Shown here: positions 7,534 through 64,000 of the stretch, piece after piece | Layout: every line of letters begins with the position of its first letter | Position numbering within the stretch: the first letter of the stretch is position 1 | DNA from: Patescibacteria group bacterium | Lineage (GTDB): Bacteria > Patescibacteriota > Microgenomatia > JAMCZE01 | Direction: 5' to 3' | Assembly (NCBI GenBank): GCA_023485845.1 | Contig: JAMCZE010000010.1 | Span: 89,448 to 153,447 of the forward strand | DNA length: 64,000 nt | Notes under the pieces: generated by a model | The model's input: only the letters and a program-made list of their open reading frames with translations | The model's database searches: none | Told to the model about the DNA's origin: nothing | Translations under genes and position numbers: made by a program

Positions 7534-7836
7534 ATGAAGACAGGCATCCATCCCCAATATTACCCGGCGGCGCAAGTTGTTTGCGCTTGCGGTAACACGT
7601 TCACCACCGGCTCCACTAAGCCGCAAATTCGGGTGGAAATCTGTGCCAAATGCCATCCTTTTTACACCGGACAACAAAAATTCGTGGACACCGTCGGCAA
7701 AATTGAGCGCTTCCAAGCCAAACAAAAAGCCGCCGCCGCCAAACAGGCCGTGGCCAAACAGAAGAAAGTGAAACAGCAGGAAGAAGACAATCGCCCCAAG
7801 ACTCTTCGGGAAATGCTTTTGGCCGCCAAAGACTAG
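7534..7836 (+). CDS. rpmE: 50S ribosomal protein L31 with Lys/Ala-rich C-terminal extension
   Basis: [10 protein letters not shown]...CACGN...[10 protein letters not shown] matches the L31 zinc-ribbon signature. Confidence 0.9.
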
Positions 7837-11073: not shown

Positions 11074-12306
11074 TTAGGACGACGGACTGAGAATAACCTG
11101 AACCGCCTTGTCCAACTGCAAGTCTTGGGTTGGGTCGGCACTGTTATTCTCAACTTTAACGTCCGGGGTTAACCCCTTCCCATTAATCCAGTTGCCGTTG
11201 GACAGCAGCCATTTGGCAACAGTGACATGCAGCCCCGTTCCGTCCGGCAAATCCTCCGCTTGCTGAACACTGCCTTTGCCAAACGTCTGGTCGCCAACCA
11301 GTTTGGCCCGGCCGGCCGCCTGCAGCGCTCCCGCCAAAATCTCACCGGCCGAGGCCGTTCCCCCATTAACTAAAACCACCATCGGCACCGAAAGCAATTT
11401 GCCGGTGCGGTTAACGGAGAAGGTCTCATTGCCGGTTGTCCCTTGTTGAGTAACAACCACCCCGGAAGGGAGAAATTCACTGGCCGTGTAGACCGCCCCG
11501 TCCAAAAGTCCGCCGGGATTATTGCGCACGTCCAACACCAGGCCCACTGGTTTTGCCGATGACGTGGCTAAATAATCAGCGATTTGACTGACCGTTGTGT
11601 CCCACTGGAGATCGGTTTGATCGCCAAACCGAGCCAAATTAAGATAGACCACCGACTTGTTAATCACTTTCCAACTGACACTTTGAAGAATAATCGTGTC
11701 CCGGGTGACGACAACATCCACCGACTGGCTCCCTCCGGAGTGCAACACATTTAGGGTCACCTTGGTTCCTTTTGGACCGCGAATCAGATTAACCACTTCC
11801 GGCAAGGTCAAAGCGGAGATGTCCTGACCGTTAACTTTAATGATCCAATCGGCGGTTTTAATCCCCGCTTTTTGGGCCGGAGAATCTGGAAGAGGAGCAA
11901 TCACCACAGTTTTGTTGTCTTTGACTCCCAATTCCGCACCAACACCGTCAAAAGTCCCGTTCAGGGAATCCTTAGTCTGCTCATTGGCCGTCGGCGGCAA
12001 GAAAACCGTGTAGGGATCGCCAATAGCCGCGACCATTCCGGAGATGGCCCCATAGACCATTTTTTGGGTGTCCAGTTTTGACTTGTCAACATATTTATTT
12101 TCCAGCTCGTCCCAAACGCTCCAGAACAGGGAAAAATCCACGGGATTGCCGGATGGTGCTAATTTATTCACCACCGCCACATGTGGGGAAAAATTTTGCC
12201 AACTGACTTTGACTTGGTTGGTCCCCAATTTATAGCCCACCAACCCAAACAGCAACCCAATGGCCAAAATTAACGAAAATTTTCTAATAAATTCAAGACG
12301 AAACAT
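11074..12306 (-). CDS. ctpA: Carboxyl-terminal processing protease (S41)
   Basis: S41 motifs (GGTASAGEILAGAL, GDQTFGKGSVQ) and PDZ. N-terminal TM. Confidence 0.85.
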   Translation of the reverse strand: MFRLEFIRKFSLILAIGLLFGLVGYKLGTNQVKVSWQNFSPHVAVVNKLAPSGNPVDFSLFWSVWDELENKYVDKSKLDTQKMVYGAISGMVAAIGDPYTVFLPPTANEQTKDSLNGTFDGVGAELGVKDNKTVVIAPLPDSPAQKAGIKTADWIIKVNGQDISALTLPEVVNLIRGPKGTKVTLNVLHSGGSQSVDVVVTRDTIILQSVSWKVINKSVVYLNLARFGDQTDLQWDTTVSQIADYLATSSAKPVGLVLDVRNNPGGLLDGAVYTASEFLPSGVVVTQQGTTGNETFSVNRTGKLLSVPMVVLVNGGTASAGEILAGALQAAGRAKLVGDQTFGKGSVQQAEDLPDGTGLHVTVAKWLLSNGNWINGKGLTPDVKVENNSADPTQDLQLDKAVQVILSPSS

Positions 12307-61624: not shown

Positions 61625-61951
61625 TATACCATCCCTTAATAAAAATCAAAAGGCTTTACAAAAAAATTTAATTGCTTCAGGATTAATTTATGGAACGGTC
61701 ACGAGACGACAGGGGCAATCGGCGCAATCACCACAAACACTACGAACAAACCCTACAACAAAAATTTTTCTCTCCGGGTGAACAAAAAGATCCCTCACGA
61801 AGTCACCGTGGTCGGAAAGGCTTGTTTACAGGAATCTGGAAGCACGGCGGTCCAAGACATAAGGATGTGGAGCAAGCCAAACATGACCGTCTAACTCTTC
61901 TGGCCCCCGTTTTAGAAAATCCCAACGAAAATCAGGTATAATTAGAAGGAT

Positions 61952-62022
61952 AGGGCTATAGTTCAATGGCAGAACGGTGGTCTCCAAAACCATTAATGGT
62001 AGTTCGACTCTACCTGGCCCTG
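61952..62022 (+). tRNA. tRNA-Trp (anticodon CCA)
   Basis: Acceptor AGGGCTA/TGGCCCT, D arm GTTC-AATGGCA-GAAC, anticodon arm GTGGT-CTCCAAA-ACCAT, T arm GGTAG-TTCGACT-CTACC. TATAAT lies 9 nt upstream. Confidence 0.85.
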
Positions 62023-62601
62023 CACAGCTGGATTTTGAAGCCACAAGGACTCCAATTGGGCCGTTGATATGCCCTGTTTTTCAGGTTCGAACTCTCCTGA
62101 AGCTGTCGGTTCCACCTTTATAATCTCTCCAAAGAATAAATATGGCCTTTGCACGTCCAGATGCAACGTTTGACCTTCTAAAATTAGGTTCGAACCAATT
62201 GTGTTGAGGATGTCCCGCTTCTCCTCCAAACTCCCTATGGAAAATTTGTAACGGGCTTGCACGGCGAAATCCAAGGCTCTTTCCAAGTTCTCGATCCAAT
62301 TCTCAATCCGCTTGCCGGTATTACCCATTCGCTCTTCTAGCTGTCGTTTTTCGCTAACAATAGATTCCTTTTGGGACTTAAATTCGTCATCCGAAAGCAA
62401 TGAACCATCAGTATTCTGCGGAGAAATTTTTAATTTAACTAAATTATCCAACCTTTGAATACAACTATCATAATTCTTTTGCACTTCTTGTAGAACGGTG
62501 TTTCTATCTTGAACCTCTTCTGTAGTGACACTCCTCGCAGCAAGCTGCGAGGCATCTGCATTGCTAAAATAGCCTGAGTTGGTCTTTTGATATTTGGACA
62601 T
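61993..62601 (-). CDS. Hypothetical protein (202 aa). Its 3' end runs antisense through the tRNA-Trp 3' half.
   Basis: ORF. Coiled-coil-like sequence. Confidence 0.4.
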   Translation of the reverse strand: MSKYQKTNSGYFSNADASQLAARSVTTEEVQDRNTVLQEVQKNYDSCIQRLDNLVKLKISPQNTDGSLLSDDEFKSQKESIVSEKRQLEERMGNTGKRIENWIENLERALDFAVQARYKFSIGSLEEKRDILNTIGSNLILEGQTLHLDVQRPYLFFGEIIKVEPTASGEFEPEKQGISTAQLESLWLQNPAVQGQVESNYH

Positions 62602-63037
62602 AGTCTTTTGGTCTTCCTTGGTTTCTGATGTACTTTTGGATGACTGTCTCAGAATTGCTTCGTCCTACTGAATTTACGAAATACCCGTCAGTCCAAAACT
62701 GGGCTCCCCAAAGGCTTTCCCTCAACCCGGCAACTCGTTTGAGAAGTTCCCGGGCCAGGATACTTTTGACCGTTCTGGCAATTTTGGTAGGAGAATATGT
62801 AGGCACTGACTGGATCAAAAAATGGACATGATCACCGTCGGCCCCAATCTCCACAAAATGCATCTCGTACCTTTGGGAAATTTCCTGACAGATCTGTTTT
62901 AGTTGGGCATCCACCTCTGTCGAGATCACGAGTTGCCTTCCCTTGGCCACACAAACCAGATGGTACAAAAGCACCGAGACATTGTGCGCTTTGTGTATGT
63001 AGATACTCACGCATACAATTTTACCCTCTCGCGGCAA
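62564..63037 (-). mobile_element. tnpA: IS200/IS605-family transposase TnpA (Y1 HUH)
   Basis: HUH motif DHVHFLIQ and catalytic Tyr region TDGYFVNSVG. 157 aa. Confidence 0.85.
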
Positions 63038-63055
63038 AGCCGCGGGGAATGAACC

Positions 63056-64000
63056 CTAAAAGAGATTCAATTCGTTAAAATACTTCAGCGCCCATTGTTT
63101 AAACTCATCACTAATTCCCGAATGCCTTAATATTTCATCAACCTGTGGTTCGAGTTTTTCTAATCTAACCGACTTTTCCTTACAGTCCGGATTTATTTTT
63201 CGTGTGCAATGATAATAAATGTAATTAAGAATTGTAGGGTTGTCCATATTCTCCACTCTGGTATTGCATTTGGGACAAGCTTCTCTGTTAAGAGATGAAA
63301 ATTTGTTATGGCAGATCGTACAAATGGTCTGCCACTTTTCTTCGGCGGTGATTGCCGACCCACAGACGCAACGAATCAAACAAGTAAAAGCAAATGTTTT
63401 ATGTTTTGGTTTGGGCAGATATTTAGCTCCAAGGAGCATTTGAACCCTGGTAAACTCTTCTTCTGTCAGCATTACTTTACCCCGCCATTTATGCCAGTTA
63501 CCACTCCCCGTCGGATATTCAAACCAACCACAATAAAATCGAGTGTGAAACATTACATATAACTCACTCAAATGCATGGGTTTACCACCTAGTTTGCCTC
63601 TTAATGGTGTTCGGTATCCCCATTCATTATTAAGTAAGGCTAAAATTTGTGGAACACGATACTTTCCGGTAAGCATTGCCCGCCAAGCCTTTTCAATAAG
63701 TTCGTACGTTCCGGGAATAGGGATCAAATCTTTCTCACCTTGCGGTGCCAGTGGATCATAACGATAGCCCGGTTGCTGACTACCAACATACATTCCTTGT
63801 TGTGATTTCTCTTTTAAACCACGTCTGACGTTTACCCCTTTGTCATCCGACTCCTTTTTACTCATCATAAAACACATTGCCAGCCAGCTCTTGTCATCTG
63901 GAGTATTTGTGTACATTTTTCCTGGCTTTCTTATCTCTACAATCTGACCAAGATCAATCATATAAATTACCCTGCCACCATCAAACGAGTTTCTGGCAAT
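63056..64000 (-). CDS. Large serine recombinase (recombinase and zinc-ribbon domains), 5' end beyond the window
   Basis: Reading frame is open to the window edge. C-terminal Cys cluster (CLIRCVCGS...CTICHNKF...CPKCNT) typical of serine-integrase zinc ribbon. Catalytic N-terminal domain not in window. Confidence 0.55.
   Translation of the reverse strand: MARNSFDGGRVIYMIDLGQIVEIRKPGKMYTNTPDDKSWLAMCFMMSKKESDDKGVNVRRGLKEKSQQGMYVGSQQPGYRYDPLAPQGEKDLIPIPGTYELIEKAWRAMLTGKYRVPQILALLNNEWGYRTPLRGKLGGKPMHLSELYVMFHTRFYCGWFEYPTGSGNWHKWRGKVMLTEEEFTRVQMLLGAKYLPKPKHKTFAFTCLIRCVCGSAITAEEKWQTICTICHNKFSSLNREACPKCNTRVENMDNPTILNYIYYHCTRKINPDCKEKSVRLEKLEPQVDEILRHSGISDEFKQWALKYFNELNLF

Follow-up and report, generated by a model that had tools for sequence, protein, structure and literature searches.

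The DNA that follows the tRNA-Trp gene close to the end of the window (the whole 64,000-nt stretch of a Patescibacteria contig analysed here) raises the question of whether it belongs to an integrated mobile element and, if so, how its genes are related to one another and to the tRNA. The original prediction listed five features in this region, namely the tRNA-Trp gene, a 202-aa ORF, a T-arm-like string, a TnpA gene, and a serine recombinase gene, and all five were present in the sequence. Our analysis indicated that the window very probably contains the integrase end of a small mobile element located at tRNA-Trp, that the integrase gene is split by an insertion sequence (IS), and that the integrase belongs to a little-known family that targets tRNA genes.

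The following features were mapped on the tRNA side of the junction.

61952-62022/3, plus strand: intact tRNA-Trp gene with anticodon CCA and without an encoded CCA end (ARAGORN; Rfam RF00005, 65 bits, E=3e-13)
61913..61942, plus strand: promoter-like TAGAAA-18-TATAAT directly 5' of tRNA-Trp (10 of 12 consensus matches, a consensus match only)

The tRNA-Trp gene, which ends in GCAGGGCCAGGTAG, is the host target gene of the element. The gene order tRNA-Trp, tRNA-Thr, tRNA-Tyr, tRNA-Thr, M50 peptidase, L28, and fmt is common to the window genome and the related locus L003. In L001, a public record of the same genome, 23 bases at 61998-62020 differ from the window, exactly in the T-arm and acceptor of the tRNA; L001 lacks the 3' portion of tRNA-Trp, and the window version of this stretch, which stands without independent confirmation, is the biologically coherent one of the two. 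A scan of genome and metagenome contig collections with the first 46 nt of tRNA-Trp found no empty site.

Beyond the tRNA, the coding sequence runs antisense and is composed of two parts of a large serine recombinase (LSR) gene.

61993-62601, minus strand: 202-aa ORF that stops 30 nt inside the 3' half of the tRNA (ORF list)
62524..62601, minus strand: IS-derived leader, an ATG at 62601 and 25 codons in frame with the recombinase 3' segment, giving the 202-aa ORF (ORF list, junction mapping)
61993..62523, minus strand: LSR 3' segment, codons 392-567 and stop, with the coiled-coil motif and C-terminal tail (alignment; restored ORF gap-free against P0001)
63065..64000, minus strand: LSR 5' segment within the window, codons 80-391 (P0007 100% identical; PHROG 95; invariant cysteines)
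63056..63064, minus strand: first 9 nt of the IS, through which the 5' recombinase ORF reads (Leu-Phe-stop; the 393 aa of P0007 are 391 + 2)

The 202-aa ORF does end inside the 3' half of the tRNA, as had been noted, but alignment identified it as the C-terminal third of the recombinase and not as a separate gene. It consists of 26 codons that come from the IS, joined to LSR codons 392-567: its residues 27-202 aligned with the C-termini of intact recombinases, and the final 10 codons of the 3' segment are the antisense strand of tRNA-Trp. The recombinase had been placed after the TnpA gene, whereas the IS in fact sits inside the recombinase gene. In silico deletion of 62524-63064 gave a single 567-aa ORF that was 75% identical to the intact homologue P0001 over 565 aa with 0 gaps, and a query joining both recombinase parts matched recombinases of 565-612 aa at 98-100% coverage. 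The break in the alignment (...KYFNELN / TEEVQDRN) follows codon 391, where the coiled-coil motif begins, and lies within the first helix of that motif; the junction of the IS-free allele would be ...GAATTGAAT joined to ACAGAAGAGG. The recombinase ORF from 63056 leaves the window beyond 64000 on the minus strand, in agreement with the prediction of an LSR whose 5' end lies outside. Its codons 1-79, the majority of the catalytic domain (approximately 150 codons), are located there, and L001 and L002 carry the gene on to its start.

The four ORFs or strings of the original prediction do exist at their coordinates, and the NCBI annotation has one gene for the 194/202-aa ORF and another for the 393-aa recombinase. 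Both observations would accord with four independent features, comprising a stand-alone 202-aa gene, an IS200 element, a recombinase fragment unconnected with that gene, and, at 62081-62104, a decayed tRNA 3' attachment copy. The alignment of residues 27-202 argues against such independence, as does the lack of any distinct family to which the 202-aa ORF could be assigned; the attachment copy is considered with the T-loop-like boxes below. An exact-protein look-up of the 202-aa ORF gave no match.

The restored 567-aa protein is an LSR of a family centred on Patescibacteria. Pfam did not recognize the in-window recombinase part, which takes in the last portion of the catalytic domain as well as the recombinase domain and the zinc ribbon; the same part matched PHROG 95 'integrase' (E=1e-20). 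On the restored protein, the resolvase-type catalytic domain was detected (PF00239, E=7e-20), with its YCRKSSE motif aligned to 3G13. The recombinase domain (PF07508) after helix E, below significance in Pfam on the window protein itself, was identified via homologues that are 55-57% identical. The zinc ribbon was evident from eight invariant Cys columns in the family alignment, with PF13408 weak on the window protein (E=0.05) and passing in P0012 and P0017. Helices 386-430 and 445-496 in the AF2 model of P0001 correspond to the coiled-coil insertion in the zinc-ribbon domain. This model (pLDDT 81) matched full-length serine integrase cryo-EM structures (E=2e-19) and aligned with serine integrase structures over approximately 570 columns. 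More than 400 homologues of the recombinase contain Resolvase, Recombinase, and Zn_ribbon_recom domains.

The insertion that separates the two parts was resolved as follows.

62524..63064, minus strand: IS200-group IS of 541 bp, with a left end (LE) of 54 nt, tnpA of 447 nt, and a right end (RE) of 40 nt (ends set by related copies; removal restores the ORF)
62564-63010/63037, minus strand: tnpA, encoding a 148-aa Y1 HUH transposase (Pfam Y1_Tnp, PF01797, E=5e-34, profile positions 2-121 of 121)
62533..62552, minus strand: subterminal hairpin of the IS right end, with an 8-bp stem and 4-nt loop (DNA fold; kept in related IS copies)
63024..63047, minus strand: imperfect subterminal hairpin of the IS left end (DNA fold, z=-2.2; kept in related IS copies)
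63065..63069, minus strand: IS target TGAAT within recombinase codons L-N, with the IS directly 3' (related copies are preceded by TGAAT, TTAAT or TTATT)

The prediction of an IS200/IS605 TnpA with HUH and Tyr motifs was borne out, and its HUH (DHVHFLI) and Tyr (KYIRNQ) motifs aligned to the solved structures 2EC2, 2A6M, and 2XM3. With a Y1 HUH TnpA, subterminal palindromes, no terminal inverted repeats, and tnpA as its only gene (no tnpB), the element has the attributes of the IS200 group of the IS200/IS605 family. Both ends were fixed by comparison with related IS copies (LE CTCTYTTARGG, RE ..TCAYT), and the right end also by another, differently flanked copy with which L002 begins. The IS inserted 3' of a short, specific sequence and did not duplicate its target; when it is removed exactly, the ORF is restored and no bases are left in duplicate. 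An exact look-up of the 157-aa TnpA reading gave no match and that of the 148-aa TnpA only the same NCBI contig, and the best metagenomic relative was 69% identical.

An uninterrupted, potentially active LSR gene was not found in the window genome, where the 541-bp IS lies inside the gene; the integrase is thus inactivated and the element most likely immobilised at present. Alternatively, the element may still be mobile, either by complementation between the recombinase fragments, the C-terminal part being made from the IS-borne ATG, or by the IS acting as a reversible gate through seamless excision. The IS does supply an in-frame ATG for the C-terminal fragment, its TnpA looks intact, a second IS copy implies recent activity, and removal of the IS restores the ORF exactly; seamless single-strand excision is known chemistry of the IS200/IS605 family (IS608 studies, PMC3597680, PMC3201880). 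Nevertheless, no IS-free allele was seen, expression of either fragment is without support, and a break inside the first coiled-coil helix is a poor site for a functional split, and we consider continued mobility unlikely.

The relation of the recombinase to tRNA genes was clearest in the family as a whole. An antisense tRNA gene was located within 150 nt of the gene end, tail-to-tail, in at least 38 of 70 LSR relatives, which are mostly from Patescibacteria MAGs. The tRNAs of the 38 loci have seven specificities (Asn 15, Gln 13, Trp 4, Glu 2, His 2, Phe 1, and Lys 1). Eight further loci have tRNA-like 3' halves after the gene, and at least three of these carry a group I intron there, because of which ARAGORN missed their tRNAs. 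The overlap, the reading frame antisense into the tRNA, and the spacing were constant across the tRNA-adjacent loci, and close relatives differed in tRNA identity. Between genomes, the host gene order on the tRNA side was kept, whereas the element side was variable.

Relatives in both unrecombined (attP) and integrated forms were found. LSRs that are each 72-76% identical to that of L148 are colinear up to GCTGGGGGACTTGGAC and then diverge: this sequence is followed by tRNA-Gln in L020, and by GATGTTCGAACC and extra codons in L030, L026, L031, and L148, the last of which is an IMG/VR viral contig that carries an unrecombined copy. A 16-nt block is identical between the attP form in L030 and the tRNA-Gln of L020, and divergence between attP-form and integrated relatives begins after a shared block of 14-16 nt. 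P0006 (locus L156), 69% identical to the window LSR, also has the unrecombined form. The 16 nt by which the unrecombined form imitates the 3' end of a tRNA support integration at tRNA genes.

We searched the 38 related loci for direct repeats of the tRNA end, using exact matches of at least 10 nt and an anchored 14-mer with up to 2 mismatches. Two real cases were found, L004/L006 and L070, in which a 14-nt direct repeat of the tRNA end lies approximately 9.7-10.3 kb away. Repeats of at least 12 nt within 10 kb were limited to 2 of the 38 loci, and the remaining direct matches were no commoner than in a reverse-complement control. For the element in the window, a search that allowed up to 4 mismatches in 18 nt gave no copy of the 3' end of tRNA-Trp in the window, L001, or L002, which reach approximately 4.2 kb beyond 64000. 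Some attP-form relatives are located in contigs of 190-226 kb without a nearby tRNA, and the simple integration model does not explain them.

The missing far site, the majority of related loci that have no detectable tRNA-fragment repeat within 10 kb, and the attP-form genes in large contigs would each fit a situation in which tRNA-Trp is not the integration target, the tRNA being carried by the element, or the recombinase being a resident (domesticated) gene whose adjacency to tRNAs serves another purpose. We regard this explanation as very unlikely in view of the conserved host order opposite a variable element side, the switches of tRNA identity among close relatives, the two elements bracketed by 14-nt tRNA-end repeats, the near-identical recombinase tails that run into a tRNA in one case and into an imitation of its 3' end in the other, and the unrecombined copy on the viral contig. 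The family evidence instead points to integration at tRNA-Trp for the window copy itself, whose far end would lie beyond the sequence seen.

Comparison of these loci suggested the positions of two parts of the attachment site.

62009..62022, no strand assigned: likely att identity block, comprising the T-stem 3' strand, acceptor 3' strand, and discriminator of tRNA-Trp (by analogy with L004/L006, L070, and L030/L020)
62030..62036, minus strand: AAAATCC motif, codons Q-N-P, 8-14 nt from the tRNA end (anchored alignment consensus; Asn codon AAT in 33 of 35)

By analogy with the related loci, the crossover likely occurs within or at the edge of 62009..62022. The AAAATCC motif is a candidate for the outer recognition motif of the element-side half-site. 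A crossover midway between box A (described below) and the T-loop was rejected: the DNA in between is coding sequence of the element and is conserved, and it is the 3' end of the tRNA to which the far-end repeats correspond. Between the shared block and the TCGAACC box, the distance is 4-5 bp greater in the attP form than in the tRNA. This displacement resembles the offset between attP and attB of the zinc-ribbon-domain motif of the LI integrase.

In the model that we propose, the free element would carry attP inside the 3' end of its integrase gene, made up of the AAAATCC motif, 14-16 nt that copy the 3' end of the tRNA, approximately 5 nt, and a T-loop-like TCGAACC box. Recombination of attP with the tRNA gene, which would serve as attB and include the real T-loop, would place the element after the tRNA and keep the tRNA intact. 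Later, the 541-bp IS200-group IS would have entered as single-stranded DNA 3' of TGAAT and cut the integrase gene, leaving a 393-aa truncated recombinase and the 202-aa IS-fused C-terminal ORF. Loss of the IS would restore the gene exactly, because IS200/IS605 elements excise seamlessly.

Two T-loop-like boxes (GTTCGAACCT) at synonymous codon positions are conserved throughout the family.

62083..62092, minus strand: box A, GTTCGAACCT, overlapping codons E-F-E-P (fixed position and synonymous-site conservation)
62186..62196, minus strand: box B, GGTTCGAACCT, over codons G-S-N-L in a different reading frame (spacing to box A exactly 103 nt)

Box A lies in the stretch 62081-62104 that had been interpreted as a degenerate tRNA-Trp 3' copy; the stretch is not a degenerate attachment repeat. 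The stretch codes for a conserved (F/L)EP motif at a fixed 65 nt from the tRNA end in relatives targeting seven different tRNAs. The plus-strand string AGGTTCGAACTCTCCTG at 62083-62099 reached a local score of 10 against the tRNA T-arm, as did 15 of 4250 window tiles, corresponding to approximately 0.5 expected per 2 kb on both strands; its T-arm likeness alone is not above chance. Its core GTTCGAAC is a family-wide conserved nucleotide motif, whereas the acceptor-like part is not kept in relatives. The possibility that the DNA between box A and the tRNA is the remnant of an antisense tRNA was likewise rejected, there being no Rfam tRNA-like match at E<=1. The string is also unlike the local tRNA in L003 and L004. 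Together with its place in coding sequence at a fixed distance from the tRNAs and the lack of a separate family for the 202-aa ORF, these findings make the four independent features set out above exceedingly improbable, and we retain a single recombinase gene split by an IS.

The core GTTCGAAC occurs in the 64-kb window only twice, in boxes A and B. In 35 of 39 loci, GAACC occupied position -65/-66 relative to the end of the tRNA, and the spacing between the boxes was 103 nt in 32 of 38. At the synonymous sites of box A, the preceding codon ended in G in 28 of 31 cases (7.5 expected), Glu was encoded by GAA in 37 of 37, and Pro by CCT in 28 of 37. Box B had the strongest synonymous-site signal of the whole gene (Ser TCG and Asn AAC, both 35 of 35). 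Pairing of the two boxes as an RNA helix was excluded: box A frequently reads GTTAGAAC where box B keeps GTTCGAAC, and no changes were seen that would compensate. The boxes involve synonymous sites in two reading frames, phased 103 and approximately 84-89 bp from the crossover region. A tentative and somewhat doubtful possibility is that the tRNA T-loop sequence TCGAACC, itself universally conserved, is a DNA recognition element of the family and that boxes A and B are accessory sites bound by the recombinase or a directionality factor. We know of no accessory binding sites of this kind described for LSRs. Recognition of TCGAACC would allow one enzyme lineage to move among at least seven tRNA species, with the tRNA 3' end restored.

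Mobile DNA was predicted to adjoin the tRNA-Trp 3' end and to run past 64000, and the next approximately 4.2 kb (L001, L002) indeed contained a DnaG-type primase gene, DUF5659, and small ORFs. Related elements have the same core order. Searches of L001, L003, L004, L148, and L156 gave neither capsid nor terminase genes, and this locus and the related elements showed no phage structural genes and no genes for ICE conjugation. Only one close relative was detected in the 2.9 million contigs of IMG/VR; with no capsid or terminase, this led us to discard a prophage reading. The wording 'prophage remnant or ICE' is therefore less apt than that of a small integrative, self-replicating element.

The locus alone, a grounded element with an IS-killed integrase, helps annotation but is ordinary; the family matters more. 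The LSR family contradicts the working rule that only tyrosine integrases target tRNA genes, and it represents a class of mobile elements from the little-explored mobilome of Patescibacteria. To our knowledge, tRNA targeting is not classical for serine integrases. In our literature search, the coverage of which was incomplete and is not proof of absence, we came across no account of a Patescibacteria clade of serine integrases that is associated with tRNA genes. Those who prospect for genome-engineering integrases could be interested in compact serine enzymes that naturally use as attB a tRNA gene, which every cell possesses, and the conservation of the in-gene T-loop-like boxes provides a testable lead on site recognition or regulation. 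If T-loop recognition is true, this LSR lineage would have a lifestyle regarded as that of tyrosine integrases.

The window LSR has the same domain order as Bxb1, phiC31, and the Listeria A118/LI integrase (catalytic domain, long helix E, recombinase domain, and zinc ribbon with an inserted coiled coil), and the P0001 model matched full-length phage-type serine integrase structures at E=2e-19 to 3e-12; however, identity to annotated phage and plasmid LSRs was only 21-26%. Unlike phage-type serine integrases, the window family has attP within the integrase ORF, a 14-16-nt tRNA mimic, and two extra conserved in-gene boxes. The serine integrases characterised so far insert inside protein-coding genes, with cores of 2-8 bp, and not at tRNA genes (PMC8092301; PMC5704250). 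The window IS shares with IS200/IS608 the Y1 HUH transposase, the subterminal hairpins, the absence of inverted terminal repeats and target duplication, and insertion 3' of a specific sequence; it differs in its target (T(G/T)AAT or TTATT), its Patescibacteria host lineage, and its very compact size of 541 bp. IS200 itself is approximately 700 bp.

As in Islander-type tRNA islands, the integrase gene adjoins an intact tRNA gene (recognized here by both ARAGORN and Rfam), the element's copy of the tRNA 3' end keeps that gene whole, and a displaced 3' fragment is found at the far end, in the related L004 and L070. In contrast to those islands, the enzyme is a serine recombinase instead of a tyrosine integrase, and the repeats are short (14 nt) and mostly undetectable. 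Island finders such as Islander (PMC4383910) have the tyrosine-only rule for tRNA targets built in. An attP in coding sequence, with integration swapping the C-terminus of a protein, is also a feature of mycobacteriophage integration-dependent immunity (PMC8092301); there the attP gene is a repressor and the integrase a tyrosine integrase, whereas here it is the serine integrase's own gene. In a preprint on the tycheposons of Prochlorococcus, LSRs are given for a minority, 27 of 937 (10.1101/2020.12.28.424599). Tycheposons and the present elements are alike in being small, in lying at tRNA genes, and in having a site-specific integrase together with a replication module (primase or helicase) and variable cargo; the hosts belong to different phyla.

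The original prediction placed mobile DNA at tRNA-Trp, and its features there (an antisense ORF, a TnpA, and a recombinase running off the window) were all recovered by ARAGORN, Rfam, ORF, Pfam, and PHROG analyses. The prediction was thus partly supported: the mobile DNA stood, but its anatomy differs from the one proposed, in that the recombinase tail makes up the 202-aa ORF and the T-arm-like string is no relic of the local tRNA. The coding strand past tRNA-Trp was minus throughout, to the window end, with a modest drop in GC content across the tRNA gene (from about 0.49 to 0.42).

Features at tRNA-Trp (window coordinates)
Just upstream of tRNA-Trp: promoter-like TAGAAA-18-TATAAT (consensus match)
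61952-62022, plus strand: intact tRNA-Trp(CCA) (ARAGORN, Rfam)
61993-62601, minus strand: 202-aa ORF, with its stop 30 nt inside tRNA-Trp
62083-62092: box A, core GTTCGAACCT, codons (F/L)EP
62186-62196: box B, GGTTCGAACCT, in the other reading frame, codons G-S-N-L
62524-63064: IS200-group insertion sequence (IS), 541 bp (left end of 54 nt, 148-aa TnpA, right end of 40 nt)
62564-63010, minus strand: IS200-type transposase gene (Pfam Y1_Tnp, E=5e-34)
63056 to beyond 64000, minus strand: recombinase ORF leaving the window (PHROG 95 'integrase', E=1e-20)

The recombinase fragment joined to the 202-aa ORF, used as a single query against the protein collection, hit over 400 proteins; the top-ranking ones (565-612 aa, with 98-100% query coverage) carried Resolvase, Recombinase, and Zn_ribbon_recom domains. 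Alignment located the break in the gene between ...KYFNELN and TEEVQDRN...; the corresponding stretch of intact homologues is NELN(D/T)EE. Removal of 62524-63064 in silico and joining of the parts gave a single 567-aa ORF that was 75% identical to the intact homologue P0001 over 565 residues with no gaps. These results show that the antisense ORF is not a separate gene: its codons 1-26, including the ATG, are the right end of the IS, and it is the tail of the recombinase headed by IS-derived codons. The restored protein contained a Resolvase domain (E=7e-20). A Pfam search did not recognize the ORF leaving the window, but homologues at 55-57% identity gave Pfam matches to both the recombinase and the zinc-ribbon domain. 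The AlphaFold model of P0001 (pLDDT 81) comprised a catalytic domain, helix E, a recombinase domain, a zinc ribbon, and two long coiled-coil helices, and matched full-length serine integrase structures at E=2e-19. The restored protein was confirmed as a large serine recombinase, of a family sharing only 21-26% identity with annotated phage and plasmid recombinases. The IS interrupts it approximately 12 residues into the first coiled-coil helix, and the same genome (Patescibacteria MAG, GCA_023378825.1) encodes a 393-aa truncated product (P0007).

The ends of the IS were set by three independent lines, namely the in-frame requirement together with alignment to intact homologues; a second copy, the last 27 nt of which (ending ...GTCACT, followed by a different flank) open Logan contig L002 of the same genome or sample; and 62 metagenomic TnpA relatives (the closest at 69% identity), in which the left end CTCTYTTARGG follows TGAAT, TTAAT, or TTATT and the common right end is ...TCAYT, beyond which the flanks diverge. 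Their concordance gives an IS of 541 bp, 62524-63064, inserted 3' of TGAAT within recombinase codons L-N. Each end contains a hairpin, and the HUH and Tyr motifs of TnpA aligned to solved IS200/IS605 transposases; there was no tnpB within the 541 bp and no target duplication at the IS. The element fits the single-strand 'peel and paste' family studied through IS608 (PMC3597680, PMC3201880). Members of this family excise seamlessly, and therefore the disruption of the recombinase may in principle be reversible. The second copy (L002 1-27) lies in the same orientation about 4.2 kb beyond the window end, ending just upstream of the element's 193-aa gene, and both termini of contig L002 fall within the IS, the pattern expected of a repeat. 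Thus, at least two IS copies are present in the genome or sample.

The second record of this genome (L001, contig JAMCSA010000010.1 of GCA_023378825.1) was 99.8% identical to the window and differed only in equal-length patches, each of which exactly reproduces, in reverse complement, a segment lying 0.6-5 kb off on the same contig (window 61998-62020 and 54227-54243; L001 1-21, 5875-5897, and 13652-13668). Because one of the patches takes the place of the tRNA-Trp T-arm and acceptor, ARAGORN detects no tRNA in L001; another lies within fmt, where homologues match the window version and not that of L001; the third is at the contig start. The L001 patches represent either an assembly artefact or an altered copy.

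One genome per species yielded 80 recombinase loci, of which the 70 with at least 150 bp downstream were counted. In 38 of these, the end of the recombinase gene was no more than 150 nt from an opposite-strand tRNA gene (Asn 15, Gln 13, Trp 4, Glu 2, His 2, Phe 1, and Lys 1); our own estimate of the chance expectation, which assumes that tRNA genes typically occur about once every 20 kb, is below 1%. The spacing between recombinase and tRNA was constant across loci, and the recombinase ORF invariably overlapped the tRNA, by 10-106 nt and in one and the same frame, with the T-loop read as D/E-S-N. Eight additional loci had tRNA-like 3' halves after the recombinase gene. In three of them, Rfam found a group I intron (RF00028, 59-73 bits; L078 11663-11986, L018 11702-11900, and L010 11717-11896), because of which ARAGORN had missed the tRNAs; the same interruption was recognized by eye in L056, L058, L060, L061, and L082. 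The split tRNA is apparently tRNA-Asn GTT, cut after the anticodon.

The T-arm-like string, predicted to be a degenerate copy of the local tRNA, proved to be a real conserved element (box A) and not such a relic: taken alone, its similarity to the tRNA was at chance level, and Rfam detected no tRNA there. A synonymous-site test showed that box A is conserved in the family beyond the need to encode (F/L)EP. G was the final base of the preceding codon in 28 of 31 cases, against 7.5 expected and a count not attained in any of 200,000 simulations; Glu was GAA in 37/37 (66% expected, P=2e-7), Pro was CCT in 28/37 (26% expected), and Phe was TTC in 18 cases and TTT in 2. In a whole-gene scan for excess third-position conservation, box B gave the top signal (Ser TCG and Asn AAC, each 35/35). 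A spacing of exactly 103 nt separated the boxes in 32 of 38 loci, and about 30 of 38 had them at positions -172 and -69 relative to the tRNA end, against 16 other non-tRNA occurrences in 691 kb; the only two occurrences of GTTCGAAC in the 64-kb window are boxes A and B. Pairing of the boxes as an RNA helix is unlikely, since no compensatory variation was seen between them. These patterns point to a conserved T-loop-like DNA motif, apparently under nucleotide-level selection. The boxes most likely bind the recombinase or an accessory protein, a putative role proposed with low confidence. In L073 (approximately 11500-11575), GGTTCGAACCT box A is perfect despite a frame shift by which F-E-P is no longer coded, which would fit selection on DNA rather than peptide but could be a sequencing error.

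The 3'-terminal 14 nt of the tRNA, made up of the 3' strands of T-stem and acceptor plus the discriminator, were directly repeated at the far end of L004/L006 (tRNA-Trp, 9.7 kb away) and L070 (tRNA-Asn, about 10.3 kb), at the boundary with host genes. L004 contains further T-loop-like pieces past this repeat (AGAATCGGAAC, equal to the local tRNA T-loop, and GGTATTCGAAC, at 2015-2045 and 2105-2125), which may be remnants of earlier integrations. The recombinases of L020, L030, L026, and L031 (each 72-76% identical to that of the IMG/VR viral contig L148) stay colinear with it and each other as far as GCTGGGGGACTTGGAC, past which they diverge: L020 runs on into a complete tRNA-Gln, and L030, L026, L031, and L148 into GATGTTCGAACC... 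and about 30 more codons. The 16-nt block in L030 exactly matches the 3'-terminal bases of the L020 tRNA-Gln. P0006, the enzyme of L156, is 69% identical to that of the window and likewise has the unrecombined form, colinear with the window as far as ...CTGTGCAG. We read the tRNA-ending and extended tails as candidate attL/R and attP states of one system, in which attP would fall inside the 3'-terminal part of the integrase gene, with a stretch mimicking the tRNA's 3' end. On this reading, the distance from the shared block to the TCGAACC box in attP exceeds that to the real T-loop in the tRNA by 4-5 bp, an offset resembling the one between attP and attB described for LI integrase. Large contigs of up to 226 kb that lack any tRNA for 10 kb around the gene carry attP-like genes in L022, L026, L029, L030, L031, L032, L036, L038, and L042 (labelled Verrucomicrobia, Limisphaerales, and similar) and in L008, L012, L014, and L025; the C-terminal extension of these genes is conserved (..AAALIYAHFRKEF among those labelled Verrucomicrobia). 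L001 and L002 reach about 4.2 kb past the window end, and no partner att site was found in this stretch. The window locus is mobile DNA at tRNA-Trp, probably integrated there, and its element is most likely immobilized.

Beyond the window, the integrase strand encodes a 193-aa ORF, DUF5659, a 64-aa ORF, a 763-aa DnaG-type primase (CHC2 zinc finger and Toprim; PHROG 47 and 239), and a 137-aa ORF. The core gene order recurs in the related elements L003, L004, and L156, and that of the host (tRNA) side is common to the window and L003. Variable cargo includes kinase-like genes, an N6/N4 methyltransferase fused to an Mrr-like nuclease at the far end of all three (L003 1387-2847, L004 4651-6510, and L156 709-2166), and a 704-aa reverse transcriptase (RVT_1; L156 2578-4692) in the place of a 686-aa protein of L003 (3248-5308) that had no family match. 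A LOOT RNA motif (Rfam RF03000, 72 bits) upstream of the L056 recombinase (7571-7685, minus strand) is possibly inside the element. No capsid, terminase, or conjugation genes were seen in the window's or related elements or on the sole IMG/VR relative.

Our literature search, of incomplete coverage, found no description of this recombinase clade. Characterized serine integrases have inserted within protein-coding genes at 2-8-bp cores (PMC8092301, PMC5704250), and in a 2026 survey RNA loci were still preferred by tyrosine integrases (PMC13626063). Tycheposons, according to a preprint (10.1101/2020.12.28.424599), combine tRNA sites with replication modules and occasionally carry a large serine recombinase. 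The novelty of the present family would lie in a serine integrase that targets tRNA genes, an attP inside the integrase gene, and T-loop-like boxes selected as nucleotides.
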